The notes: generated by a model not told the origin, from the letters alone. A stretch of DNA of 64,000 nt from GCF_988243305.1 NZ_OZ547136.1, one strand, 5' to 3'. Shown: positions 292 through 62,533, numbered from the stretch's first letter. Numbers and translations: made by a program.

Positions 292-1251
292 ATGAGTCTG
301 AATTTCCTTGATTTTGAACAGCCGATTGCAGAGCTGGAAGCGAAAATCGATTCTCTGACTGCGGTTAGCCGTCAGGATGAGAAACTGGATATTAACATCG
401 ATGAAGAAGTGCATCGTCTGCGTGAAAAAAGCGTAGAACTGACGCGTAAAATCTTCGCCGATCTCGGTGCATGGCAGATTGCGCAACTGGCACGCCATCC
501 ACAGCGTCCTTATACCCTGGATTACGTTCGACTGGCATTTGATGAATTTGACGAACTGGCTGGCGACCGCGCGTATGCAGACGATAAAGCTATCGTCGGT
601 GGTATCGCCCGTCTCGATGGTCGTCCGGTGATGATCATTGGTCATCAAAAAGGTCGTGAAACCAAAGAAAAAATTCGCCGTAACTTTGGTATGCCAGCGC
701 CAGAAGGTTACCGTAAAGCACTGCGTCTGATGCAAATGGCTGAACGCTTTAAGATGCCTATCATCACCTTTATCGACACCCCGGGGGCTTATCCTGGCGT
801 GGGCGCAGAAGAGCGTGGTCAGTCTGAAGCCATTGCACGCAACCTGCGTGAAATGTCTCGCCTTAGCGTACCGGTAGTTTGTACGGTTATCGGTGAAGGT
901 GGTTCTGGCGGTGCGCTGGCGATTGGCGTGGGCGATAAAGTGAATATGCTGCAATACAGCACCTATTCCGTTATCTCGCCGGAAGGTTGTGCGTCCATTC
1001 TGTGGAAGAGCGCCGACAAAGCGCCGCTGGCGGCTGAAGCGATGGGTATCATTGCTCCGCGTCTGAAAGAGCTGAAACTGATCGACTCCATCATCCCGGA
1101 ACCGCTGGGCGGCGCTCATCGTAACCCGGAAGCGATGGCGGCATCGTTGAAAGCGCAACTGCTGGCGGATCTGGCCGATCTCGACGTGTTAAGCACTGAA
1201 GATTTAAAAAATCGTCGTTATCAGCGCCTGATGAGCTACGGTTACGCGTAA
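292..1251 (+). CDS. accA: Acetyl-CoA carboxylase carboxyltransferase alpha subunit
   Basis: 319 aa ORF beginning [19 protein letters not shown] with a GxGG motif region typical of AccA; expected length and neighbourhood. Confidence 0.93.
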
Positions 1252-1270
1252 TTCGCAAAAGTTCTGAAAA

Positions 1271-1296
1271 AGGGTCACTTCGGTGGCCCTTTTTTA
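1271..1296 (+). terminator. Putative rho-independent terminator after accA
   Basis: Imperfect GC-rich hairpin (agggtcac..gtggccct) followed by a T-run immediately after the accA stop. Confidence 0.45.
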
Positions 1297-1349
1297 TCGC
1301 CACGGTTTGAGCAGGCTATGATTAAGGAAGGATTTTCCAGGAGGAACAC

Positions 1350-3491
1350 ATGAACATCATTGCCATTATGGGACCGCATGGCGTCTTTTATAAAGATGAG
1401 CCCATCAAAGAACTGGAGTCGGCGCTGGTGGCGCAAGGCTTTCAGATTATCTGGCCACAAAACAGCGTTGATTTGCTGAAATTTATCGAACATAACCCTC
1501 GAATTTGCGGCGTGATTTTTGACTGGGATGAGTACAGTCTCGATTTATGTAGCGATATCAATCAGCTTAATGAATATCTCCCGCTTTATGCCTTCATCAA
1601 CACCCACTCGACGATGGATGTCAGCGTGCAGGATATGCGGATGGCGCTCTGGTTTTTTGAATATGCGCTGGGGCAGGCGGAAGATATCGCCATTCGTATG
1701 CGTCAGTACACCAACGAATATCTTGATAACATTACACCGCCGTTCACGAAAGCCTTGTTTACCTACGTCAAAGAGCGGAAGTACACCTTTTGTACGCCGG
1801 GTCATATGGGCGGCACCGCATATCAAAAAAGCCCGGTTGGCTGTCTGTTTTATGATTTTTTCGGCGGGAATACTCTTAAGGCTGATGTCTCTATTTCGGT
1901 TACCGAGCTTGGTTCGTTGCTCGACCACACCGGGCCACACCTGGAAGCAGAAGAGTACATCGCGCGGACTTTTGACGCGGAACAGAGTTATATCGTTACC
2001 AACGGAACATCGACGTCGAACAAAATTGTGGGTATGTACGCCGCGCCATCCGGCAGTACGCTGTTGATCGACCGCAATTGTCATAAATCGCTGGCGCATC
2101 TGTTGATGATGAACGATGTAGTGCCAGTCTGGCTGAAACCGACGCGTAATGCGTTAGGGATTCTGGGTGGGATCCCGCGCCGTGAATTTACTCGCGACAG
2201 CATCGAAGAGAAAGTCGCTGCCACCACGCAGGCACAATGGCCGGTTCATGCGGTGATCACCAACTCAACCTATGATGGCTTGCTCTACAACACCGACTGG
2301 ATCAAACAGACGCTGGATGTCCCCTCGATCCACTTCGATTCCGCCTGGGTGCCGTACACCCATTTTCATCCGATCTACCAGGGTAAAAGTGGTATGAGCG
2401 GCGAGCGTGTTGCGGGAAAAGTGATCTTCGAAACGCAATCGACCCACAAAATGCTGGCGGCGTTATCGCAGGCTTCGCTGATCCACATTAAAGGTGAGTA
2501 TGACGAAGAGGCGTTTAACGAAGCCTTTATGATGCATACCACCACCTCGCCCAGTTATCCCATTGTTGCTTCGGTTGAGACGGCGGCGGCGATGCTGCGT
2601 GGTAATCCAGGCAAACGGCTGATTAACCGTTCAGTAGAACGAGCTCTGCATTTTCGCAAAGAGGTCCAGCGGCTGCGGGAAGAGTCTGACGGCTGGTTTT
2701 TTGATATCTGGCAACCGCCGCAGGTGGATGAAGCCGAATGCTGGCCCGTTGCGCCAGGCGAACGGTGGCACGGCTTTAACGATGCGGATGCCGATCATAT
2801 GTTTCTCGATCCGGTTAAAGTCACTATTTTGACACCGGGGATGGACGAGCAGGGCAATATGAGCGAGGAGGGGATCCCGGCGGCGCTGGTGGCAAAATTC
2901 CTCGACGAACGTGGGATCGTAGTAGAGAAAACCGGCCCGTATAACCTGCTGTTTCTCTTTAGTATTGGAATCGATAAAACCAAAGCAATGGGATTATTGC
3001 GTGGGTTGACGGAATTTAAGCGCTCTTACGATCTCAACCTGCGGATCAAAAATATGCTACCCGATCTCTATGCTGAAGATCCCGATTTCTACCGCAATAT
3101 GCGTATTCAGGATCTGGCGCAAGGGATCCATAAGCTGATTCGTAAACACGATCTTCCCGGTTTGATGTTGCGGGCATTTGATACCTTGCCGGAGATGATC
3201 ATGACGCCACATCAGGCATGGCAGAGACAGATTAAAGGCGAAGTGGAAACCATTGCGCTGGAACAACTGGTCGGTAGAGTATCGGCAAATATGATCCTGC
3301 CTTATCCACCTGGCGTACCGCTGCTGATGCCAGGAGAAATGCTGACCAAAGAGAGCCGCACGGTACTCGATTTTCTACTGATGCTTTGTTCCGTAGGGCA
3401 ACATTACCCCGGTTTTGAAACGGATATTCACGGCGCGAAACAGGACGAAGACGGCGTTTACCGTGTACGAGTCCTAAAAATGGCGGGATAA
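1350..3491 (+). CDS. ldcC: Lysine decarboxylase, constitutive
   Basis: 713 aa ORF with good RBS (aggagg); large PLP-dependent decarboxylase in the accA-ldcC-yaeR context. Confidence 0.9.
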   Translation: MNIIAIMGPHGVFYKDEPIKELESALVAQGFQIIWPQNSVDLLKFIEHNPRICGVIFDWDEYSLDLCSDINQLNEYLPLYAFINTHSTMDVSVQDMRMALWFFEYALGQAEDIAIRMRQYTNEYLDNITPPFTKALFTYVKERKYTFCTPGHMGGTAYQKSPVGCLFYDFFGGNTLKADVSISVTELGSLLDHTGPHLEAEEYIARTFDAEQSYIVTNGTSTSNKIVGMYAAPSGSTLLIDRNCHKSLAHLLMMNDVVPVWLKPTRNALGILGGIPRREFTRDSIEEKVAATTQAQWPVHAVITNSTYDGLLYNTDWIKQTLDVPSIHFDSAWVPYTHFHPIYQGKSGMSGERVAGKVIFETQSTHKMLAALSQASLIHIKGEYDEEAFNEAFMMHTTTSPSYPIVASVETAAAMLRGNPGKRLINRSVERALHFRKEVQRLREESDGWFFDIWQPPQVDEAECWPVAPGERWHGFNDADADHMFLDPVKVTILTPGMDEQGNMSEEGIPAALVAKFLDERGIVVEKTGPYNLLFLFSIGIDKTKAMGLLRGLTEFKRSYDLNLRIKNMLPDLYAEDPDFYRNMRIQDLAQGIHKLIRKHDLPGLMLRAFDTLPEMIMTPHQAWQRQIKGEVETIALEQLVGRVSANMILPYPPGVPLLMPGEMLTKESRTVLDFLLMLCSVGQHYPGFETDIHGAKQDEDGVYRVRVLKMAG

Positions 3492-3547
3492 CTTGCCAGA
3501 GCAGCTTCCGGGCGAGTAACGTGCTGTTAACAAATAAAGGAGACGTT

Positions 3548-3937
3548 ATGCTGGGTTTAAAACAGGTTCACCATATTGCGATTATTGCGACGGATTATGC
3601 GGTGAGCAAAGCGTTTTACTGCGATATTCTTGGTTTCACGCTGCAAAGCGAAGTCTATCGCGAAGCGCGCGATTCGTGGAAAGGGGATTTGGCGCTTAAT
3701 GGGCAATATGTGATTGAGCTTTTCTCATTTCCGTTCCCGCCGGAGCGCCCCAGCCGACCGGAAGCTTGCGGCCTGCGTCATCTGGCTTTTAGCGTTGATG
3801 ATATCGATGCGGCAGTGGCGCACCTTGAAAGCCATAACGTGAAGTGTGAAGCCATCCGTGTCGATCCATACACGCAAAAACGCTTCACGTTCTTTAACGA
3901 TCCGGACGGGCTGCCGCTGGAACTGTATGAGCAGTAA
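3548..3937 (+). CDS. yaeR: Glyoxalase/VOC family protein
   Basis: ORF 3521..3937; the internal ATG at 3548 gives about 129 aa (MLGLKQVHHIAIIATDYAVSKAFY), matching the remembered YaeR length. Confidence 0.8.
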   Translation: MLGLKQVHHIAIIATDYAVSKAFYCDILGFTLQSEVYREARDSWKGDLALNGQYVIELFSFPFPPERPSRPEACGLRHLAFSVDDIDAAVAHLESHNVKCEAIRVDPYTQKRFTFFNDPDGLPLELYEQ

Positions 3938-4001
3938 GGCTTGTCATCGCCACATTTGCCCGGTAACGTGCCGGGCATTGCTACTGTAAAATCGCATCAT
4001 C

Positions 4002-7680: not shown

Positions 7681-8505
7681 TCACTGAGTCAGCCCAACAA
7701 AGCGGCCCGCCTTGATATAAATCCCAGGCTTCAGGTGCCCAACATACTGTAACTGCGTTTCTGGCTTAAACGCAGAGACATCGCCAGTACGCATATGCAT
7801 CAGATCGGCAGGGCTAATCCAGCCCGATTGCGCCAGTGTAAGTGGATGCCCGGCTTTGGCAAATGCATCAGTGACAAATTCCGAACAAAACCACGACTTT
7901 TTGTCTCCTTCGCCCACACTGCTTAACTGCGCTTTCGCCAGGCCGCTGACGCACTGTTGACGAAAATCCTCGGAGAACGGATTCAGTGAGCACATCTGGC
8001 GAGTTACCATAAAGGGAATAAATTCGACAATGCCGCGATAGTTGTAACCGCTATCTTTAATTTTGTTGGCGAACGCGGTGATTTCTGTGGCTTGTTGCGG
8101 GGTAAGATCCGGGACTCGTAGGACGAAAAGCTTATCGCTATGCTTCATCGCTTTTTTGAGGGAAACAATCTGGACGCCAGCGCCTGTCGCTTCTGCAACG
8201 TTATTTTCACCCAGATAGATTGCAACGTGACTCACAGAGGAAGTGCTGAAGACGCGGATTCCAAATGAGGTTACCCCATGGCTTGAGGAGAACAGCAAAT
8301 CGCCGGGTTTGAGATCAGGTTCCGTTATTTCTTTTATTGATTGTTCGGTAAAAGAGCTTTGATGCTGGAATTTGACTGCCCATGTTTTCGCCCCGGCATC
8401 TACCGCTGTGGCTGATGAGTCCGGCTGGCTGATATCTACGGTACAGGCCGAAAGGAAAAGAAAGCAGGGGAGAAGCAGGCGGCAATGCACCTTTGGTTTA
8501 TCCAT
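7681..8505 (-). CDS. yaeF: NlpC/P60-family lipoprotein
   Basis: 274 aa ORF with signal peptide and lipobox (FLSAC); expected position between nlpE and proS. Confidence 0.8.
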   Translation of the reverse strand: MDKPKVHCRLLLPCFLFLSACTVDISQPDSSATAVDAGAKTWAVKFQHQSSFTEQSIKEITEPDLKPGDLLFSSSHGVTSFGIRVFSTSSVSHVAIYLGENNVAEATGAGVQIVSLKKAMKHSDKLFVLRVPDLTPQQATEITAFANKIKDSGYNYRGIVEFIPFMVTRQMCSLNPFSEDFRQQCVSGLAKAQLSSVGEGDKKSWFCSEFVTDAFAKAGHPLTLAQSGWISPADLMHMRTGDVSAFKPETQLQYVGHLKPGIYIKAGRFVGLTQ

Positions 8506-10386: not shown

Positions 10387-11094
10387 TTAACGCGGTTCCA
10401 GCGCAAAGACTTCAAAACCTGCGTCGGTGACGCGCCAGCGAACGTTAAAATCATGCAGCCAGACGGCATAGGTTTTGCCCGTTTCCTCACCTTTACGATA
10501 GGCCGGGCGCGGGTCCTGCGCCAGTACTTCGCGGATAAACAGCGTTAACTGCGGATAACGCTTCTCCAGCGTCAAAAGCTGCTTTTCGACCTCTGCGGTA
10601 AAACTCACCGCCATCTCTGCAGCTGGCGCACTTTGCGCATAGCTGGCACTGGCATCGGGAAGCGATTCGGCAAAGGGGAGATACGGTTTGATATCCACCA
10701 CCGGCGTCCCATCTACCAGATCCAGACTGCCGAGCTTCAGAATCACGCTGTCTTTATGGCAAACAACCTCTTTCAGCTCTACCAGCGACATACCAATCGG
10801 GTTAGGGCGGAAAGTGGAGCGCGTAGCGAAAACACCCATTCTGGTATTACCGCCGAGGCGCGGTGGACGCACAGTCGGACGCCAGCCGCCTTCCATCGTT
10901 TGATGAAAGACGAAAAGGATCCATAAATGGCTGAACGCTTCCAGGCCGCGAACGGCGTCGGCCTGGTTGTAGGGAGCAATGAGATGCAGTTCGCCGTTGG
11001 CGCTTTTTACCAGACCTGGCTGGCGCGGAACGGCGAATTTTTCTTTATAGGGCGAGCGAATAACGCCTATTTGCTCGAATTGGAAACTGCTCAT
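10387..11094 (-). CDS. tsaA: tRNA (adenine37-N6)-methyltransferase
   Basis: 235 aa ORF; conserved yaeB/tsaA-rcsF arrangement. Confidence 0.85.
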   Translation of the reverse strand: MSSFQFEQIGVIRSPYKEKFAVPRQPGLVKSANGELHLIAPYNQADAVRGLEAFSHLWILFVFHQTMEGGWRPTVRPPRLGGNTRMGVFATRSTFRPNPIGMSLVELKEVVCHKDSVILKLGSLDLVDGTPVVDIKPYLPFAESLPDASASYAQSAPAAEMAVSFTAEVEKQLLTLEKRYPQLTLFIREVLAQDPRPAYRKGEETGKTYAVWLHDFNVRWRVTDAGFEVFALEPR

Positions 11095-53302: not shown

Positions 53303-54349
53303 ATGATAGAAATGAAAAATAACACACCATTTCCTTTGTTGTCATTTGAAAAATATGGTCGTTATGGTCTTTTGTTTGATGTTATTGCTATTAAAATGTC
53401 ATTGCGAATTAAAAATGGATTTTATGCTGATCTTGCTGAGTTTCAAAAAGAATTGTCCATGTCTGATGAATACTATGGGGAGTCTGAAACAAGTAGTCTA
53501 AAATCTGAAACAGACTTAGTTCTTTGTAAAAGAAATACAGATATTCACGTGACAGGTAGTGCTCATGCCCCTCCAGGGGATAAGTCTAAGTGGAAGGCTT
53601 GTGTGAGGGTTAATAGTTTTTCTAAAGAACTGAGTTTATCTGGTGTCCGCTACTTACAATATGAGCGAAATCGTTGGCAGATGAGCTTACCAGATAAAAT
53701 TATTAATGTTCCTCTACGCTATGAGCTTGCTTACGGTGGTATTTGGCAACCAGATGGTATGGAGAAATTGGTTTTTTCAGCAAACCCTGTAGGTTGTGGA
53801 TATTATCCTGATATTTCTCAACTTAATACAAGTTGTCAATATAAACTCCCACAAATAACCAGCTCTGCTTTGTCAGAAAACGCTACCATTTTTAATGGGG
53901 AATCTGACTTTTTTCAAGGTGTTGGCCCTGTATCTCGATGGTGGAAAAGTCGCCTCCAGTATGCAGGAACCTACAATGAAGTATGGCGTGAAAAGCGCTA
54001 TCCCTATTTGCCGGATGATTTTGATGAGCGGTTCTACAATAGTGCTCATCCGGATATGATATACACGGGGTTTCTCTCTGGCGATGAAAACATCTCTCTT
54101 GAAGGTTTTTTTAAATTTGAACAGGTTGTTAAGACAAAATTGCCAGGTATACGACCTGTACTTATATTAAAAACCAAGCATAATACATCACATATGTTCT
54201 TACCTGTTGCGGATACAATGGTTATCGATTTAAGTCGACAGGAAATATACCTTACCTGGAGATTAACAATACCTGATTTTTTTGGAATGAAAGAAGGAGT
54301 GCTGAGTTGTATTATTCCTGAATGTATAGGGAAAAAATATTATGGGTAA
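53303..54349 (+). CDS. Putative T6SS adaptor protein (DUF2169-like)
   Basis: 348 aa AT-rich gene immediately downstream of vgrG and translationally coupled (8 nt overlap) to a PAAR-like effector gene, the canonical DUF2169 context; assignment is by context and size, not verified by search. Confidence 0.5.
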   Translation: MIEMKNNTPFPLLSFEKYGRYGLLFDVIAIKMSLRIKNGFYADLAEFQKELSMSDEYYGESETSSLKSETDLVLCKRNTDIHVTGSAHAPPGDKSKWKACVRVNSFSKELSLSGVRYLQYERNRWQMSLPDKIINVPLRYELAYGGIWQPDGMEKLVFSANPVGCGYYPDISQLNTSCQYKLPQITSSALSENATIFNGESDFFQGVGPVSRWWKSRLQYAGTYNEVWREKRYPYLPDDFDERFYNSAHPDMIYTGFLSGDENISLEGFFKFEQVVKTKLPGIRPVLILKTKHNTSHMFLPVADTMVIDLSRQEIYLTWRLTIPDFFGMKEGVLSCIIPECIGKKYYG

Positions 54350-55382
54350 CTATCATATCGGGGATGGTGAATGTAGATTTAGAGTCGTGTGTTCTTCACC
54401 AGATGTATGTGAAGTAGGAGGTTACAAGGTTCCTTTTGACAGTTACCAGACTTTAGATAGTGAAAGACAGTACAGTTCAACGGTATGGGCGCGTGGATGC
54501 AGAGCTTTAAATGTTGGTTCAGTGATTGCTGGAACTCAAAGTAATGCCGGTAAAGGTGTCATATCCGGTACATCTCAAGGAACGGGTGACTGTGTTATTT
54601 TAACGGGAAGTCCGACTGTAACAATAGAAGGGAAACCTGTTGCTTATCATGGTTCAGTTGTTGGGATTAATAACCATAACTGCCTTGGTAAATTGTATAC
54701 CAAAATAAAATCACCAATGATTTCTGTCATTGATAAAACTTTTAGTTATGAAAGGACTGCTGAAGTAATACACGATTTACTGCTTCTGAAGGATCTCCTT
54801 TCTGTTGGGAATATTTTGGGCGGAGATATTTCACCTGAGGTTAAAAATGATTTATTTCAAATAAAAGATCCTGACCAATCATGGGGGGAGTTTTTTTCAA
54901 TAAAGAATATCAGAGAATCTCTCAGGAATGGTATTGAAGGAGATAAATCTCAGATCAGAGAATGGTTTGGAGAGAACACACTTACTCAAATGGGCAATGG
55001 AGCAATCACCACTTTACATGGTGTGGCGGATTTAGCCTTAGTTACATTCGATGCTCTGTTAGATACGGCAACGGCAACGGTTGCTTGCCCGATAGGCGAA
55101 GATGGGTTATGTGAACAGGCAAATATAAATTTAAATGAAAAAGAACAGGCTTTATTTAATATTAGTAATTCATTGATAAATGGGCAAGCATGGGATGCAC
55201 TTAAAAAAATGATAATGGATACAAATAATGGTGATCAGATTGCTCTGGAGCATTTTGCCAGCTTTTTATGGGGCTTTATGATACCCGCAAAAATACCAGA
55301 AGAAAATATCTCTGGGAAAGTATTTGTAGAGCCAGTAGTTTTAGAAGGTGGTGCTGGTGGCAATTGGACAGTATTTGATTAG
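54342..55382 (+). CDS. PAAR-like (DUF4150-type) T6SS effector, N-terminal and linker portion; ends at an in-frame TAG
   Basis: 346 aa; N-terminal about 125 aa with the DUF4150-like pattern (GTGDCVILTGSPTVTIEGKPVAYHGSVVGINNHNCLG); helical central region; the stop TAG at 55380..55382 is in frame with the following toxin-like ORF. Confidence 0.6.
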   Translation: MGNYHIGDGECRFRVVCSSPDVCEVGGYKVPFDSYQTLDSERQYSSTVWARGCRALNVGSVIAGTQSNAGKGVISGTSQGTGDCVILTGSPTVTIEGKPVAYHGSVVGINNHNCLGKLYTKIKSPMISVIDKTFSYERTAEVIHDLLLLKDLLSVGNILGGDISPEVKNDLFQIKDPDQSWGEFFSIKNIRESLRNGIEGDKSQIREWFGENTLTQMGNGAITTLHGVADLALVTFDALLDTATATVACPIGEDGLCEQANINLNEKEQALFNISNSLINGQAWDALKKMIMDTNNGDQIALEHFASFLWGFMIPAKIPEENISGKVFVEPVVLEGGAGGNWTVFD

Positions 55383-55409
55383 GTTTTAGATTCAAATGTA
55401 ATAAAGCAA

Positions 55410-55781
55410 TTGACTTTAACAGGCTGTGGAGCGGCCTGTGGGGAAATGTTGCTTAGGGATAGGTATATTTTTGTCACGCAAAATGTAATTGGAACAGAAT
55501 TAACATCTATGACGTCGCTGGCAAACAAGCTTAATAAATTTGATGTCGGCTGGGAAGGGAATGAAGTGAGCGAATCTAGTTTATATGCCCTCAGTAATAC
55601 TGGTTCATGGGGAGCAATGATGTGGGATTCTGGAAGTAAAGTAGGGCATTGGGTACTTGTTAAGGGTGTTGATGATGCTGGGAATGTGATAATATATGAT
55701 CCATATCAAGGGAGTCGATATCTGATGACTGAACAGGAATTTAAGGAGGTATGGAATGGGCATAGTGTTTACAAACCATAA
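55410..55781 (+). pseudogene. Papain/C39-like cysteine-peptidase toxin domain, in frame with the upstream PAAR ORF (split by one TAG codon)
   Basis: 123 codons with no ATG or RBS before the putative catalytic Cys (GCGAACGEMLL); His (GHWVLVKG) and Asp (DDAGNVIIYDP) complete a papain-like Cys-His-Asp order reminiscent of peptidase C39; continuous with ORF 54342..55382 except for one TAG. Confidence 0.45.
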
Positions 55782-56046
55782 TATTGATTTGTTATCGGTT
55801 GAATTTGATGAGATTACAAAAAATTGTAATTACACTTTTAGTGTAGATGGAGAGACGGCTATCTTTACTGCTAGAATATCAATAATAAGAAATATAAAGG
55901 GAATTAAATATAGCGAAGAACTTGATAAATTTATAATGTCAATAATGCCATTGCAGCCTAAAGTATCAAAAATTTTGGGAGGTGTTACTTGGGATTGTAT
56001 TTGTGGTAAGGAAGTTGGATTTCCTGTGAGATTAATTGGTAAGTGA
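55756..56046 (+). CDS. Candidate cognate immunity protein (cytoplasmic)
   Basis: 96 aa; strong RBS AAGGAGG 7 nt before the ATG; overlaps the last 26 nt of the toxin-domain ORF; no signal peptide. Confidence 0.5.
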   Translation: MGIVFTNHNIDLLSVEFDEITKNCNYTFSVDGETAIFTARISIIRNIKGIKYSEELDKFIMSIMPLQPKVSKILGGVTWDCICGKEVGFPVRLIGK

Positions 56047-56284
56047 AGGGTGGTGAGGTATTTCTATATTTTTTTTCGTGAAAGTCTTTAAAACTAAAAT
56101 TATCTTGTTGGGAGCCCAAGGTGAGATCATAAAACGTATTATTTTATAAATATTGTTATGCAGGGAAAGGTCAAGTAATGCTGCTTTTTTGTACTAAATA
56201 ATTCGCATTTTATGTTCAATAATTGAGGTGTTCCTTATTACCTAAAGCTGTTTTTCATTGCTTATACATGATCAAATACTCATT

Positions 56285-57130
56285 GCATAATTAAGGGGGC
56301 AAAATGGAACTTAAAAAATTGATGGAACATATTTCTGTTATCCCCGATTACAGGCAAGCCTGGAAAGTGGAACATAAATTGCCAGATATTCTATCTGTTA
56401 ACTATTTGCGCCGTTATTTCTGGTGCATAAGGCTGGGAAGATATAGAGGATTTGGGGAAACACATCTCGATTTTTTGAAGTGATATGGTGATTTTGAAAA
56501 TGGTATTCCTGTTCACGATATCATTGCCAGAGTTGTATCCTGTATCAGTCCTGCAAAATTTTACGAGTGCTTTATTAACTGGATGCGTGACTGTCATTCT
56601 TCAGATGATAAAGACATCATCGCAATTGATGGAAAAACGCTCCGGCACTCTTATGATAAAAGTCGTCAAAAGGGAGCAATTTATGTCATTAAAATCCGTC
56701 TTCATATTGTTTGCATGTCTCTGATGAATTTATTGATTTTACGTTTGAATGGAAAGGGCTGAAGAAATTATGCATGGCAGTCTCATTTCGCTCAATAATA
56801 GCAGAACAAAAGAAAAATCCCGAAATGACGGTCAGATATTATAGCATTTCTGCTGATTTAACCGCAGAGAAGTTCGCCACAGCGAACCGAAATCACTGGC
56901 AAGTGGAGAATAAATTGCACTGGCATCTGGACGTGGTAATGAATAAAGACGACTTCAAAATAAGAAGAGGAAATGCAGCAGAATTATTTTCAGGGATACG
57001 GAAGATCGCTATTAATATTTTAACGAAAGATAAGATAATCAAGGCAGGGGCAAGATGTAAGATGTGAAAAGCAGCTGCGGACAGAGACTACCTCGCGTCA
57101 GTCCTTGCGGGGGCGGGCTTTCGTAATCTT
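56285..57130 (+). pseudogene. ISAs1-family (H-repeat-associated) transposase, degenerate: frameshifts plus internal deletion
   Basis: Segments matching the N-terminus ([26 protein letters not shown]...GETHLDFLK), middle ([10 protein letters not shown]...[19 protein letters not shown]) and C-terminus ([12 protein letters not shown]...[18 protein letters not shown]...[20 protein letters not shown]) of H-repeat transposases in different frames, with about 120 codons missing from the middle. Confidence 0.75.
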
Positions 57131-57295
57131 GTTCTGCAAGGGATGATAAAAAGTGCAACTTTATTCCACGCAGCTATTTAGACAGCGTACAGTAAACAAA
57201 CGAAAGTTGTTATTTCAATGGTCAGGGCAAGAGCATGAAGTGTTTACTACACACTATGCTCTTGTCCTGGAGTCAGGTCTTGTCTGGAGGGATAA

Positions 57296-57799
57296 ATGGT
57301 AGATATTGTCGAGGCCGATAAAACGGATATTTATTTCATTCAGGAGAGTGTTTATGGCAAAATCGGGTTGCCAGCTTTGGGTAATACAATAGGACCATCC
57401 GCACAGCAAGTTGTTAAAAAGGTATTCGCTGTCGTTAAAGAACGAGATAAGACACATGCAAAACAGAGATTATTGTTGGAATATAATGGTAACAAACTCT
57501 GGATGAATGCTATTGATGGCAGTGAAGCTATCCTACCAACAGAATTTTCTAAGCGGTACGAACTTTCATTATTCAATACTACTAATTTTGGAGAAGATCC
57601 TTTTCCTGATGTTAATTTATATAATAATATGAAATCAAGTTTTTTTGTAAGGTTTGGTGGAACATCCCATCCCGAGGCTTGGGCTATTTATAATGCAAGT
57701 ACGAAAGAGGTTAAATATATAGAAACTGCAAGAGAAATTGATAAAATATTCAGTGATTTTAACTTGAGTGGTACATTGCCAATTCACATTGGTCAATGA
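57296..57799 (+). CDS. Hypothetical protein (cysteine-free, no signal peptide)
   Basis: 167 aa ORF with strong RBS (GGAGGG) 6 nt upstream; AT-rich; between the two ISAs1 fragments; no recognisable family. Confidence 0.45.
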   Translation: MVDIVEADKTDIYFIQESVYGKIGLPALGNTIGPSAQQVVKKVFAVVKERDKTHAKQRLLLEYNGNKLWMNAIDGSEAILPTEFSKRYELSLFNTTNFGEDPFPDVNLYNNMKSSFFVRFGGTSHPEAWAIYNASTKEVKYIETAREIDKIFSDFNLSGTLPIHIGQ

Positions 57800-57864
57800 T
57801 TTTTAAATTGTGTGATTAAATAATTGAACATTAATGATGATTTATAGCATCATTATTCTATAAC

Positions 57865-58377
57865 ATGAATAAACGGATTGAATGTGTTATGTTAAAAATG
57901 AGTTTATACGTAATAATATTGTTATTTTCCTTTCAGATTAGTGCAGCCATTACTAGCAAGGAAAGTGAGGTTGTTTCACCATTATTAATGGATGTTAATT
58001 CTTCACTAACAATGGAAAATATATCTGAATTATCCACATCATCGGAACCATCGCAACAGGGGGTATTTCCTGTAATATGTACTCGACTTCATCCTGGCTC
58101 CGTAATGAAACGCCAGTTATTAACCGGCTGGGGGCCTGTTTTTATAATTGGTGATGATCCTTTTTCTCTGCGCTGGATGAGTGAACATCTGGAGATCCTT
58201 AAATCGCTAAATGCCCTTGGTTTGGTTGTTAATGTTGAATCAGTAGAACGAATGGAGGTATTACAGCAGCGGGCTGATGGGTTATTGTTATTGCCAGTTA
58301 TCTGCGATAATTTCGTGCAAACTCTGCAATTAAATGCTTATCCGGTATTAATCACAGAGATGGAAATATCACAATGA
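57865..58377 (+). CDS. Hypothetical exported protein (signal peptide)
   Basis: 170 aa ORF with N-terminal signal-like segment (MLKMSLYVIILLFSFQISAAITS); AT-rich; no recognisable family. Confidence 0.45.
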   Translation: MNKRIECVMLKMSLYVIILLFSFQISAAITSKESEVVSPLLMDVNSSLTMENISELSTSSEPSQQGVFPVICTRLHPGSVMKRQLLTGWGPVFIIGDDPFSLRWMSEHLEILKSLNALGLVVNVESVERMEVLQQRADGLLLLPVICDNFVQTLQLNAYPVLITEMEISQ

Positions 58378-58394
58378 TTAATAACATAATTACT

Positions 58395-58640
58395 GCAAAT
58401 AATATCGTAATTTTGAAAATGGTAATCCTGTTCACGACACCATAATTAGAGTTATGTCTTGTATCCGTTCAGTATAATTTCACGAATGCTTTATTAACTG
58501 GATGCGAGATTGCCATTCATCAAATGATAAAGACGTCATCGCAATTGATGGAAAAGCGCTTCCACACTCCTATGATAAAAGTGGTCGCAGGAGAGCGGGC
58601 TTTCGTAGTCATACCCCGACTCTCCCCAGCCCTAAACACA
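58395..58640 (+). pseudogene. yafF: ISAs1-family (H-repeat) transposase fragment, second copy (yafF-like remnant)
   Basis: About 220 bp direct repeat of 56490..56700 encoding FENGNPVHDTI...[35 protein letters not shown], adjacent to yafV. Confidence 0.7.
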
Positions 58641-58648
58641 ACCCCCAC

Positions 58649-59428
58649 TCACCACAACCTAAACTCATCCGCATCCCGCCATGCCGGAAACTTTTCTCTA
58701 TACTCCCGCAACGCCATCATCGACAGCTCCGCATCAATGCGCGTTGCCTGATGCGCGTCGGCAGTAGCGATAATCTCGCCTTGCGGATTAATCACCCGGC
58801 TGTCACCACGATAATGGCAGCCGTTGCCATCGCTGCCGACGCGATTGCATCCCGCCACATACGCCTGATTCTCAATCGCGCGGGCTGTCAGCAATGCCTG
58901 CCAGTGCAGAGAGCGCGGAGCAGGCCAGTTGGCGACGTACAGGGCGAGGTCATAATCGTTGAGATTGCGCGACCACACCGGAAAACGTAAGTCGTAGCAC
59001 ACCAGCGGCAAAATACGCCAGCCGCGCCATTCCACAATCACTCGCGCATTGCCCGCTTTATAATGTAGATGCTCATCTGCCATGCGGAACAGATGACGCT
59101 TATCATAAAAATGTACCGTGCCGCCCGGCTCAACCAGCAAAAAGCGGTTAACCGAACCAGACTCCGTTTGTAATGCAACACTGCCTGCAATCAGCGCATT
59201 GCACTGCTGCGCTTTGGCTGTCATCCAGTTCACTACGTCATCTTGTGCTAGCGACGAAGCTGCCGCTTCCATGGCAAAGCCGCTGGTAAACATCTCCGGT
59301 AGAACGATCACATCGCGTCCGGTAATACCTTCCAGTTGACGATCAAAATGACGCAGGTTGGCAGGACCATCCATCCACACCAGTGGTTGCTGCAAAAGCG
59401 TAATCTTCAAACCAGGCACGGTGTACAA
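58649..59428 (-). CDS. yafV: Omega-amidase (nitrilase/CN-hydrolase family)
   Basis: 259 aa ORF with carbon-nitrogen hydrolase features (catalytic-Cys region LVCYDLRFP); core-genome position before ivy. Confidence 0.85.
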
Positions 59429-59572
59429 CTCCTTTATGCGAAGGGTTTTATAACTTTAACACCTTATCAGGCAGTTGCCTTAGCGCAGAATAAATTGATA
59501 ACAAATGCTGATATTGGAAATATCTGATTTGCAAATTATCGTGTTATCGCCAGGCTTTAGGAGGTTAATAAC

Positions 59573-60046
59573 ATGGGCAGGATAAGCTCGGGAGGAATGA
59601 TGTTTAAGGCAATAACGACAGTCGCCGCTCTGGTCATCGCCACCAGTGCAATGGCGCAGGATGATTTAACCATTAGCAGCCTTGCAAAGGGCGAAACCAC
59701 CAAAGCTGCGTTTAATCAGATGGTGCAAGGGCATAAGCTACCTGCATGGGTGATGAAAGGCGGTACTTATACTCCCGCACAAACCGTAACGTTGGGAGAT
59801 GAGACGTATCAGGTGATGAGCGCGTGCAAACCGCATGACTGTGGCTCGCAACGTATCGCTGTGATGTGGTCCGAGAAATCTAATCAGATGACGGGGCTGT
59901 TCTCGACTATTGATGAGAAAACGTCGCAAGAGAAACTCACCTGGTTGAATGTGAACGATGCGCTTTCGATTGATGGTAAAACGGTGCTGTTCGCGGCGTT
60001 GACCGGCAGCCTGGAAAACCATCCGGATGGCTTTAATTTTAAATAA
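59573..60046 (+). CDS. ivy: Inhibitor of vertebrate lysozyme (periplasmic)
   Basis: 157 aa ORF with signal peptide (VAALVIATSAMAQDD) and CKPHDC loop motif. Confidence 0.88.
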   Translation: MGRISSGGMMFKAITTVAALVIATSAMAQDDLTISSLAKGETTKAAFNQMVQGHKLPAWVMKGGTYTPAQTVTLGDETYQVMSACKPHDCGSQRIAVMWSEKSNQMTGLFSTIDEKTSQEKLTWLNVNDALSIDGKTVLFAALTGSLENHPDGFNFK

Positions 60047-60057
60047 TTAGCGGATAA

Positions 60058-60088
60058 AGAAACGGAGCCTTTCGGCTCCGTTATTCAA
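60058..60088. terminator. Bidirectional terminator between convergent ivy and fadE
   Basis: aaacggagcctttcggctccgtt hairpin with flanking A/T runs. Confidence 0.65.
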
Positions 60089-62533
60089 TTACGCGGCTTC
60101 AACTTTCCGCACTTTCTCCGGCAACTTTACCGGCTTCGTCGCCAGCTCTTCCGGATCAAAGTCATCAACGTTAATACTGCGCAGACGGCTTTCTTCAGCT
60201 TTCACCAGAATAGCGGCTTCATCTTTATCAATCAGCCCCTTCGCCAGCGCGTTATGCGCCAGTTCATCCAGACGGGTAAACGGCAGGTTTTTACCCAGCT
60301 CTTTACAGATCCGCTGATGAATTGGGTCGGCGGCAATCACATCCACCAGCGCCTCTTCCAGTAAGCCAACCGGGTTATGCTCGCTCGGCGTCAGGTACTG
60401 ACCGCGACCAATACGTGAACGGGTGGCGTTCGGCACTTGTAAAATCTTCGCCACCTTATGATCCAGCTTGTCAGAAGGTGCCAGATAATGACGTCCGGTC
60501 GGGAAGATCACCACATTCAGCAGCCCGGCAACCACGCGGTTCGGGAAGTTTTGCAGTAAATCATCCATCGCCTGTTCAGCCTGATACAGCGCATCCTGTA
60601 CGCCCCAGTGCACCAGCGGCAGGTCGGCTTCATTACGGCCTTCGTCGTCATAACGCTTCAGAACGGCAGAGGCGAGGTAAAGCTGGCTTAAAATATCCCC
60701 CAGACGTGCCGAGATACGCTCACGACGTTTCAGGCTGCCGCCCAGCACAGCCATCGAGACATCAGAAAGCAGGGCGAGGTTGGCGCTCAGGCGGTTCAGG
60801 TGCTGATAGTAGCGTTTAGTGGCATCGCCGGTTGGCGTGCTGCTGGTTAAACCGCGCGTCAGGCCCAGCCAGAAGCTGCGAACTTTGTTGCTACCGACGT
60901 GACCGATATGTTTAAACAGGAGTTTATCGAACGCGTTGACGTCATTGTTCTTCGCCGCTTCCATCTCTTCCAGCACGTACGGATGGCAACGAATCGCTCC
61001 TTGTCCGAAGATCATCATGCTGCGGGTCAGAATGTTAGCCCCTTCAACGGTGATGGCAATCGGCGCGCCCTGGTAAGCACGCGCCAGGAAGTTGCTCTGC
61101 CCGAGCATAATGCCTTTGCCACCAGTGATATCCATCGCATCAATAATCGACTGCTGCCCGCGGTGGGTACAGTGATACTTAACGATAGCCGACAGCACGG
61201 CAGGTTTTTCACCGAGCATAATGCCGTAGGTAATCAGCGATGCCGCAGCATCCATTACATAAGCGTTTCCGGCAATACGCGCCAGCGGCTCTTCAATCCC
61301 TTCCATCTTACCAATAGAGATTTTGAACTGACGGCGGATGTGCGCATACGCACCCGTTGCCAGCGCTACCGATTTCACGCCGCCGGTTGAGTTGGAAGGC
61401 AGGGTGATACCGCGGCCTACCGAGAGGCACTCCACCAGCATCCGCCAGCCTTGCCCGGCCATTTTTGGTCCGCCGATAATGTAATCGATCGGTACGAAGA
61501 CATCTTTACCGCGCGTCGGTCCGTTCTGGAACGGCACGTTCAGCGGGAAGTGGCGACGACCAATTTCCACGCCCGGCGTGGTAGTCGGGATCAGCGCACA
61601 GGTAATACCTAAATCTTCTGCACCGCCGAGTAATTTCTCCGGGTCGGAGAGTTTAAACGCCAGCCCAAGCACGGTCGCAATCGGTGCGAGCGTAATGTAA
61701 CGTTTGTTCCAGGTCAGACGCATCCCCAGCACCTGCTGGCCCTGCCATTCCCCCATGCAGACAATCCCGGTGTCCGGAATCGCGCCCGCATCGGAACCCG
61801 CTTCCGGGCTGGTCAGTGCAAAGCAAGGGATTTCCTGACCACGCGCCAGACGCGGCAGATAGTGATCTTTCTGCTCGTCAGTGCCGTAATGTTGCAGTAG
61901 CTCACCCGGGCCTAATGAGTTTGGCACGCCGACGGTAATCGCCAGGATCCCGCTCACGCCGGAGAGTTTTTGCAGCACGCGAGACTGGGCATAAGCCGAG
62001 AACTCCAGCCCGCCGTACTCTTTTTTGATGATCATCGCGAAGAAACGATGCTCTTTAAGGTACGCCCACAACTCCGGCGGCAAATCAGCCAGCTCATGAG
62101 TAATCTGGAAATCATTCGCCATCCGGCAGGCTTCTTCTACCGGGCCGTCGAGAAACGCTTGCTCTTCTGCGGTCAGGCGCGGCTGCGGATAGTTATGCAG
62201 CTTTTTCCAGTCCGGCTTGCCCTGGAACAAGTCGCCCTCCCACCATGTGGTGCCTGCGTCGATCGCTTCTTTCTCAGTGCGCGACATCGGCGGCATCACC
62301 TTACGGAAGCCGCGAAATACCGGCGCGGAAATCATCGACTTACGCATAGGCGCAAAGTTAAATGGCACGAGGATAATGGCCAGAGGCACCAGTACCCACG
62401 CCGACCACAGACCAGCAACGCCGAGGGCGGCTGTCCAGGCGAGCAAAATCAGACTGCTGATAAATAAGCTCACGCGGTGATAGAACAACGCGCCGAGCAG
62501 GACAACCGTAGCGAGAATACTCAAAATCATCAT
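60089..62533 (-). CDS. fadE: Acyl-CoA dehydrogenase
   Basis: ORF 60089..62611; the internal start [18 protein letters not shown] gives 814 aa; acyl-CoA dehydrogenase domains. Confidence 0.92.

Follow-up and report, generated by a model that had tools for sequence, protein, structure and literature searches.

The junction described here most probably comprises two relics of ISAs1-family insertion sequences (ISs), of different age, on either side of an older, resident two-gene cassette, at the point where the aspV type VI secretion (T6SS) island of E. coli borders on the core gene yafV. Coordinates are those of the window, the whole 64,000-nucleotide stretch of NZ_OZ547136.1 that was analysed. 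Such build-up of dead ISs where a genomic island ends is routine, and there is nothing out of the ordinary in this case, which has already been annotated: RefSeq lists both copies as ISAs1 pseudogenes, the upstream one under the label 'ISAs1 family transposase, frameshifted; internal stop'.

The order of events that we infer, with the direction of each step set by parsimony, is as follows. The locus would be the right-hand margin of the aspV T6SS island, now worn. An ISAs1-family element would have inserted there long ago, 30 bp downstream of yafV; decay of its right inverted repeat would have left it immobile, and it would then have been eroded differently in each E. coli lineage, what is left of it being an intact-looking copy in B strains, the 3' stub yafF in K-12 and, via two deletions, a piece of ~230 bp in the window. 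The two-gene cassette would already have been at the junction, without having been brought in by the ISs. A second ISAs1 copy, belonging to the modern ISEc1 type, would subsequently have landed upstream of the cassette and decayed through a 312-bp deletion and frameshifts. The 200-bp direct segment that the two copies share would be an accident of which pieces survived, and a crossover of an upstream ISEc1-type copy with the remnant could delete the cassette, as it apparently did in the ATCC 8739 clade.

A direct repeat of transposase sequence

A repeat search returned one 200-nt direct repeat, 56478–56677 against 58397–58596, with a spacing of 1919 and 82% ungapped identity. Counted in register, the two arms are 81.5% identical over 200 nt, and blastn aligns them at 83.2% over 185 nt, ungapped, with an E value of 1.4e-46, a match far above chance level. 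The first arm (56478–56677, plus strand) lies within the upstream ISAs1 copy; the second (58397–58597, plus strand) is an internal ISAs1 fragment, corresponding to ISEc1 nt ~319–519, with two in-frame stops. Both encode residues ~56–125 of the intact ISAs1 transposase, as judged by tblastn against that protein (E values of 2e-68, 6e-64 and 7e-30). The NCBIfam model NF033564 ('ISAs1 family transposase') gives 97.3 bits with the 3' ORF of the upstream copy (cutoff 70) and 407.6 bits with an intact orthologue; the 44-aa readable piece of the downstream remnant matches with an E value of 2.5e-9, under the bit cutoff solely through its shortness.

An earlier, sequence-only reading of this region had placed repeats of about 220 bp and 85% identity here. 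The direct repeat is real, with true values closer to 200 bp and 82%, and the final ~25 nt of the downstream segment as then drawn (58595–58618) are unlike 56680–56700, matching instead the right terminus of the upstream IS at 57113–57137. That both segments encode the same internal transposase region was borne out by the tblastn and NF033564 matches, and the opposite case, that the segments are unrelated to each other or to ISAs1, is contradicted by these and by the blastn alignment.

The upstream ISAs1 element

All IS pieces were placed on the 1291-bp reference of ISEc1, or H-repeat (H-rpt), an ISAs1-family element with 14-bp imperfect terminal repeats (CAGGGAAAGATCAC / CAGGGCAAGATTAC), and the upstream element was aligned with six intact ISEc1 copies of other loci. 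The anatomy can be read directly from these alignments. The upstream copy is a dead ISAs1/ISEc1-type element at 56161–57137 (plus strand) in which ISEc1 nt 1–532 are joined to nt 845–1291. Both terminal inverted repeats are kept, in register with the six intact copies: the left (IRL), at 56161, reads CAGGGAAAGGTCA and the right (IRR), at 57124–57137, reads GTAATCTTGTTCTG. A 312-bp internal deletion (ISEc1 nt 533–844; junction 56691/56692), together with adjoining codons that do not align, has cost the transposase residues ~130–242, and the reading frame is further broken by two frameshifts, in the interval ~56385–56460, and by three in-frame stops. The intact transposase ORF of a functional element is thus absent from this copy, as it is from the remnant, which holds 70 transposase codons only, with two stops. 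The description of the upstream copy as nearly full-length, frameshifted and internally deleted therefore stands, as does the comparison with intact ISAs1 transposases on which it can be judged; only the starting point, formerly put at 56285, has to be moved to 56161, as 124 bp of the left end, including the left inverted repeat, had been missed.

When the flanks of 56161–57137 were compared (...ATTGTTATG / CAAGGGATGA...), no matching direct repeat of the kind expected of a target-site duplication was found. This fits later rearrangement and is not an argument against ISAs1 homology; it does count to some degree against the order of events proposed above, in which the upstream copy would have arrived by simple transposition. 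The identical 312-bp deletion is seen in the upstream copy of other strains (loci L011 and L012), so this copy is not recent.

Between the right end of the IS and the cassette lies a 49-bp spacer (57138–57186), which is gone where an intact ISEc1 abuts the cassette in strain T-HYM1 (L003, NZ_CP141767.1). In that strain a third ISAs1 copy, split by a group II intron (ltrA), is found upstream of the cassette (774–3955), followed by a 24-bp fragment 100% identical to window positions 57061–57084 and then by the intact ISEc1, an arrangement that shows repeated ISAs1-into-ISAs1 insertion at this spot. In OU349849.1 the 49-bp spacer is inverted (7703–7767), beside an IRR-like stub (..CGCTTGCCCTG), which hints at an old IS-mediated inversion.

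The yafV-proximal remnant

The downstream remnant spans 58397–58618 and consists of ISEc1 nt ~319–519 fused to the last ~29 nt of the element, a ~740-bp deletion having brought the latter (58590–58618, plus strand; ISEc1 nt ~1263–1291) up against the internal fragment. It has no left end. Its right inverted repeat (58605–58618) is complete but decayed, reading GTAGTCATACCCCG, with 10 of its 14 positions agreeing with the consensus; the possibility that the yafV-proximal IS carries a truncated right repeat was rejected on cross-locus comparison. Only 30 bp separate the end of the remnant from the stop codon of yafV (2-oxoglutaramate amidase; 58649–59428, minus strand), the gene with which the core genome resumes on the right of the island. 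The earlier description of the downstream copy as short and abutting yafV is thus correct, and it is this relic that delimits the aspV island on the right.

The remnant had also been called equivalent to yafF of K-12, the 'min 5' H-rpt remnant known since the Rhs/H-rpt work of the 1990s. This is correct as to position, flank and decayed right repeat, but the two have kept different segments: yafF corresponds to ISEc1 nt 1001–1291 and overlaps the window remnant (~319–519 plus ~1263–1291) in the last ~29 nt only. In BLR(DE3) and BL21, a full-length ISAs1 copy with an intact 1137-bp ORF abuts yafV and the cassette is absent. As the same decayed right repeat and yafV flank are found in the window, K-12, the B strains, ATCC 8739 and other loci, we regard yafF, the B-strain copy and the window remnant as a single ancient insertion, differently eroded; the intact B-strain copy was probably refreshed by gene conversion. 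In 1008 genomes the deletion junction of the remnant occurs together with its yafV flank, ~250 more than have any cassette DNA. The locus resembles ISEc1/H-repeat loci in its NF033564 transposase, in its association with an Rhs/T6SS cargo region and in sharing yafF's insertion site beside yafV, and differs from them in that both copies are dead and the remnant, of a diverged sequence type, retains a segment other than that of yafF. A solitary ~78-bp ISAs1 left-end fragment (80% identity) is found in BLR(DE3) (L002, 3749–3826), ~175 bp upstream of the intact yafV-adjacent copy, and is another relic of past IS turnover at the junction.

Two ISAs1 sequence lineages

In the shared 200 nt, yafV-side remnants are 88–100% identical among themselves and 79–84% identical to every other ISAs1 copy examined, and the upstream copy of the window is 90–95% identical to active-type ISEc1 copies. 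The two window copies therefore represent lineages ~18% apart. A search of 5426 complete E. coli genomes with the remnant found no other place above ~85% identity, nor was any full-length remnant-type ISAs1 found in the same genomes. Within the remnant group, divergence reaches 10–12%, which exceeds expectation for strictly vertical descent within E. coli, and some otherwise remnant-type copies (loci L005 and L011) contain patches of ISEc1-type sites, pointing to repeated gene conversion.

These comparisons bear on the simplest account of a same-family pair in the same orientation, namely that a single element gave rise to both, either as the halves of an IS split by the cassette or through a recent tandem duplication. 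That account is scarcely credible. Both copies hold the same IS segment (nt 319–519), an overlap in IS coordinates that already refutes the idea of two halves, and the 18% divergence of the arms, each of which groups with a different lineage, argues that they are not a recent duplication.

Distribution and age of the cassette

The same 5426 genomes were searched with the cassette (query 57138–58396). Some part of it is present in 758 of them (14%) and all of it in 541, a distribution that is observed directly. There are 763 places in the 758 genomes, 760 of them chromosomal, with one per genome in nearly all carriers, and the cassette adjoins yafV at every locus inspected. Among the variants are the T-HYM1 arrangement, in which the intact ISEc1 lies 49 bp further in and abuts the cassette, and a truncation by IS630 after which just part of the second gene is left.

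Most informative as to age is OU349849.1 (L015), where a relative of gene 1 (68% aa identity; E. coli yielded no other diverged one) and a DUF2859 gene (76% aa) occupy the same locus, followed by yafV, ivy and fadE. The two cassette alleles are 76% identical at the nucleotide level and homology stops at the gene 2 stop codon. No IS is present at the position of the remnant, which is thus an empty site, or directly upstream; an independent complete ISEc1 lies 195 bp after gene 2. Between the alleles, gene 1 has a dN/dS ratio of 0.28 and gene 2 one of 0.32, and purifying selection acts on both. A divergent, selected allele at the same locus that lacks the IS arrangement implies that the gene pair predates the ISs and is not IS cargo. 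Between the independent ISEc1 and yafV, OU349849.1 also has an 87-aa ORF with no family match (10555–10818) that is absent from the window, presumably having been lost by the deletion that made the left edge of the remnant.

The contrary view is that the ISs delivered or captured the two genes as a module, with 56161–58618 forming a unit like a composite transposon. The likeness to IS-flanked cassettes of that type is real enough: same-family copies in direct orientation flank the cargo, an outer IRL (56161) and an outer IRR (58605–58618) are present and correctly oriented, and the cassette is AT-rich (36% GC, against 55% for yafV) and confined to a minority of genomes. The evidence nonetheless makes this view very improbable, and it can be considered largely refuted already. 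No IS–cargo–IS unit was found at more than one locus or replicon among the 763 places, which are yafV-adjacent wherever inspected; the OU349849.1 allele sits at the same locus with neither IS in place; the two IS copies, ~18% apart, have decayed independently; the right repeat agrees with the consensus at only 10 of 14 positions; and the neighbouring T6SS cargo genes are equally AT-rich. In contrast to composite-transposon-like cassettes, evidence of mobility is absent here, the cargo is older than the ISs, and the ISs themselves are defective and of different ages. The sequence-only reading was thus right that the two intervening genes are AT-rich, but its proposal of a separately acquired module fails against the allele found at the same locus in the absence of the ISs, and the bracketing by IS fragments, which it took as a sign of separate acquisition, loses that meaning in view of the empty remnant site and the single copy per genome in nearly all carriers.

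A cassette-less hybrid

In strain 300081 and the ATCC 8739 clade the cassette is absent and the yafV-proximal IS piece is a hybrid, comprising nt 110–519 plus the terminus. Read from left to right, the hybrid sequence of 300081 and ATCC 8739 is of ISEc1 type at 20 diagnostic sites in a row and of remnant type at the next 13, with a single switch within ...CTGCCATTC..., ISEc1-type to its left and remnant-type to its right. Hybrid plus flank is matched at 100% over its full length in at least 40 genomes among the matches listed, and the best match is at least 99% in 135 records; as the 473-bp hybrid query is mostly generic IS sequence, bands of coverage and identity cannot separate the types and these figures are not an exact count of hybrids. 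The ISEc1-type part of the hybrid is nearer to generic ISEc1 than to the decayed upstream copy of the window, so the recombining partner would have been another copy, such as the intact one seen in T-HYM1.

Recombination of an upstream ISAs1 copy with the remnant has probably occurred in nature, to judge from the clean hybrid and the missing cassette, and the hybrid indicates that diverged IS relics are still able to reshape the junction. There is a less likely, though far from negligible, alternative in which the hybrid arose by gene conversion of a longer remnant and the cassette was lost through a separate, unrelated deletion, the repeats never having mediated deletion at all. The ISEc1-type patches in remnant-type copies (L005, L011) show that conversion happens here, and the hybrid, which starts at IS nt 110 behind another full IS, has evidently had a complex history. 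Against this, one crossover would cover the loss of the cassette, the leftward extension beyond nt 319 and the single clean switch together. We therefore take a crossover of the remnant with an ISEc1-type copy upstream to be the probable cause of the hybrid.

Efficient RecA-dependent exchange usually needs ~25 nt of identity, and mismatch repair suppresses exchange between diverged repeats. In the window genome the longest identical stretch shared by the two arms is 20 nt and their divergence is 18%; given these values and mismatch repair, deletion in this genome should be rare. The suggestion that the repeats are substrates for deletion by homologous recombination is accordingly supported by the cassette-less ATCC 8739-clade hybrid, but the arms found here are poor substrates.

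The cassette genes and their T6SS setting

The window gene pair ends the T6SS island. Just upstream of the IS relics, at 53303–56046, is a T6SS cargo module that includes a DUF2169 protein, a 346-aa PAAR-like (DUF4150) protein whose C-terminal half has no assignment, a 123-aa protein that RefSeq calls C39-peptidase-like (with weak, below-cutoff NCBIfam matches) and an overlapping 96-aa ORF with no family match. This module probably consists of an effector and immunity or accessory genes. Rfam gave no match at E ≤ 0.1 across 54000–60500, and a promoter/terminator scan of 56000–58700 found sites no more numerous than in shuffled sequence. At 57223–57269, 27 bp upstream of gene 1, is a 47-bp palindrome whose 21-nt arms are 81% complementary and whose tips (CAGGGCAAGAGCAT ... 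ATGCTCTTGTCCTG) are similar to the terminal repeat of ISAs1. The palindrome provides the window's one exact CAGGGMAAGA match, although at least one such match is given by 24% of shuffles; a pair of miniature IS ends, an operator or mere chance could account for it.

Gene 2 (57889–58377, plus strand, with an alternative ATG at 57865) encodes a 162-aa protein with an N-terminal signal or anchor and a DUF2859 / TIGR03765 domain of the PFL_4695 family of proteins from integrative and conjugative elements (ICEs). The match to TIGR03765 scores 120.6 bits (cutoff 59.75) with full domain coverage, and PF11072 is also matched. In these respects gene 2 is like its counterparts in MPF_G ICEs (SGI4, PAPI-1-like), to the ICE versions of which it is at most 44% identical. 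In the ICEs, however, the PFL_4695 gene lies inside the type IV secretion (T4SS) cluster, between the SLT transglycosylase gene and traD at the two ICE loci examined (L016 and L017), whereas gene 2 has an unrelated partner gene; none of the ICE neighbours found at those two loci, where T4SS genes such as those for SLT, TIGR03759 and TraD would be expected, is present in the window, and gene 2 has no other conjugation genes near it. In the window, this DUF2859/PFL_4695 ICE protein is an orphan.

Gene 1 (57296–57799, plus strand) encodes a 167-aa protein with no signal peptide, which belongs to an uncharacterised family of ~190-aa proteins found mostly in enterobacteria. Searches of gene 1 against Pfam, NCBIfam, PADLOC and PHROGs gave no match, and sequence and profile searches of the PDB found nothing for either cassette protein. 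A full HMMER scan recovered 31 relatives of gene 1, most of ~190 aa, the E. coli product being ~30 residues shorter; conserved positions of the family include E17, D101 and a G-x-D-P-x-P...L-Y motif. Besides the window pair, one homologue follows an orphan hcp gene and one follows tssC inside a T6SS cluster. Seven further homologue contexts have no T6SS gene nearby, three of these being on contigs of less than 1.5 kb. Apart from the hcp and tssC loci, the relatives are found in small islets surrounded by core genes, or on contigs whose length does not allow a judgement, and most of them have directly downstream a gene for a protein of ~145–179 aa; the five such partners that were translated (145–157 aa) have four TM-like segments each. 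A DUF805 gene is also found at three loci of gene 1 relatives.

The same pattern of context has been described for orphan T6SS cargo effectors paired with membrane immunity proteins, such as Ssp4–Sip4 and Ssp6–Sip6 of Serratia, in which Ssp4 is helical and the Ssp6 immunity protein is 67 aa with two TM segments (PMC12669606, PMC6889166). Relatives of gene 1 resemble these pairs in lying in islets of two or three genes with a downstream partner of ~145–157 aa; the E. coli gene 1 differs in being ~30 residues shorter and in having no four-TM partner. Membership of gene 1 in the Ssp6 or Ssp4 families was rejected on the descriptions in those papers alone (immunity protein size, helical fold).

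By analogy of context, then, the gene 1 family might tentatively be put forward as a putative T6SS-linked effector family, a suggestion that we would presently regard as doubtful. A fuller version, equally speculative, would have gene 1 belong to a family of small T6SS cargo effectors, hitherto undescribed, that normally rely for immunity on an inner-membrane protein with four TM segments; the shortened E. coli version, kept at the end of the aspV T6SS island, would stand next to a periplasmic DUF2859 protein taken over from a conjugative element, possibly a new immunity protein or partner. The cassette genes are in any case conserved, selected and uncharacterised, and the context signature of orphan T6SS effectors in the gene 1 family offers a modest lead, the only real one at this locus, in that one of the two cassette products may be a secreted toxin. 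In one metagenomic T6SS cluster (JGI 3300078837, L027; 6001–11062), a gene 1 homologue lies directly after tssC and is followed by eight small unannotated genes, several with signal peptides, a run of genes that looks like an array of effectors and immunity proteins.
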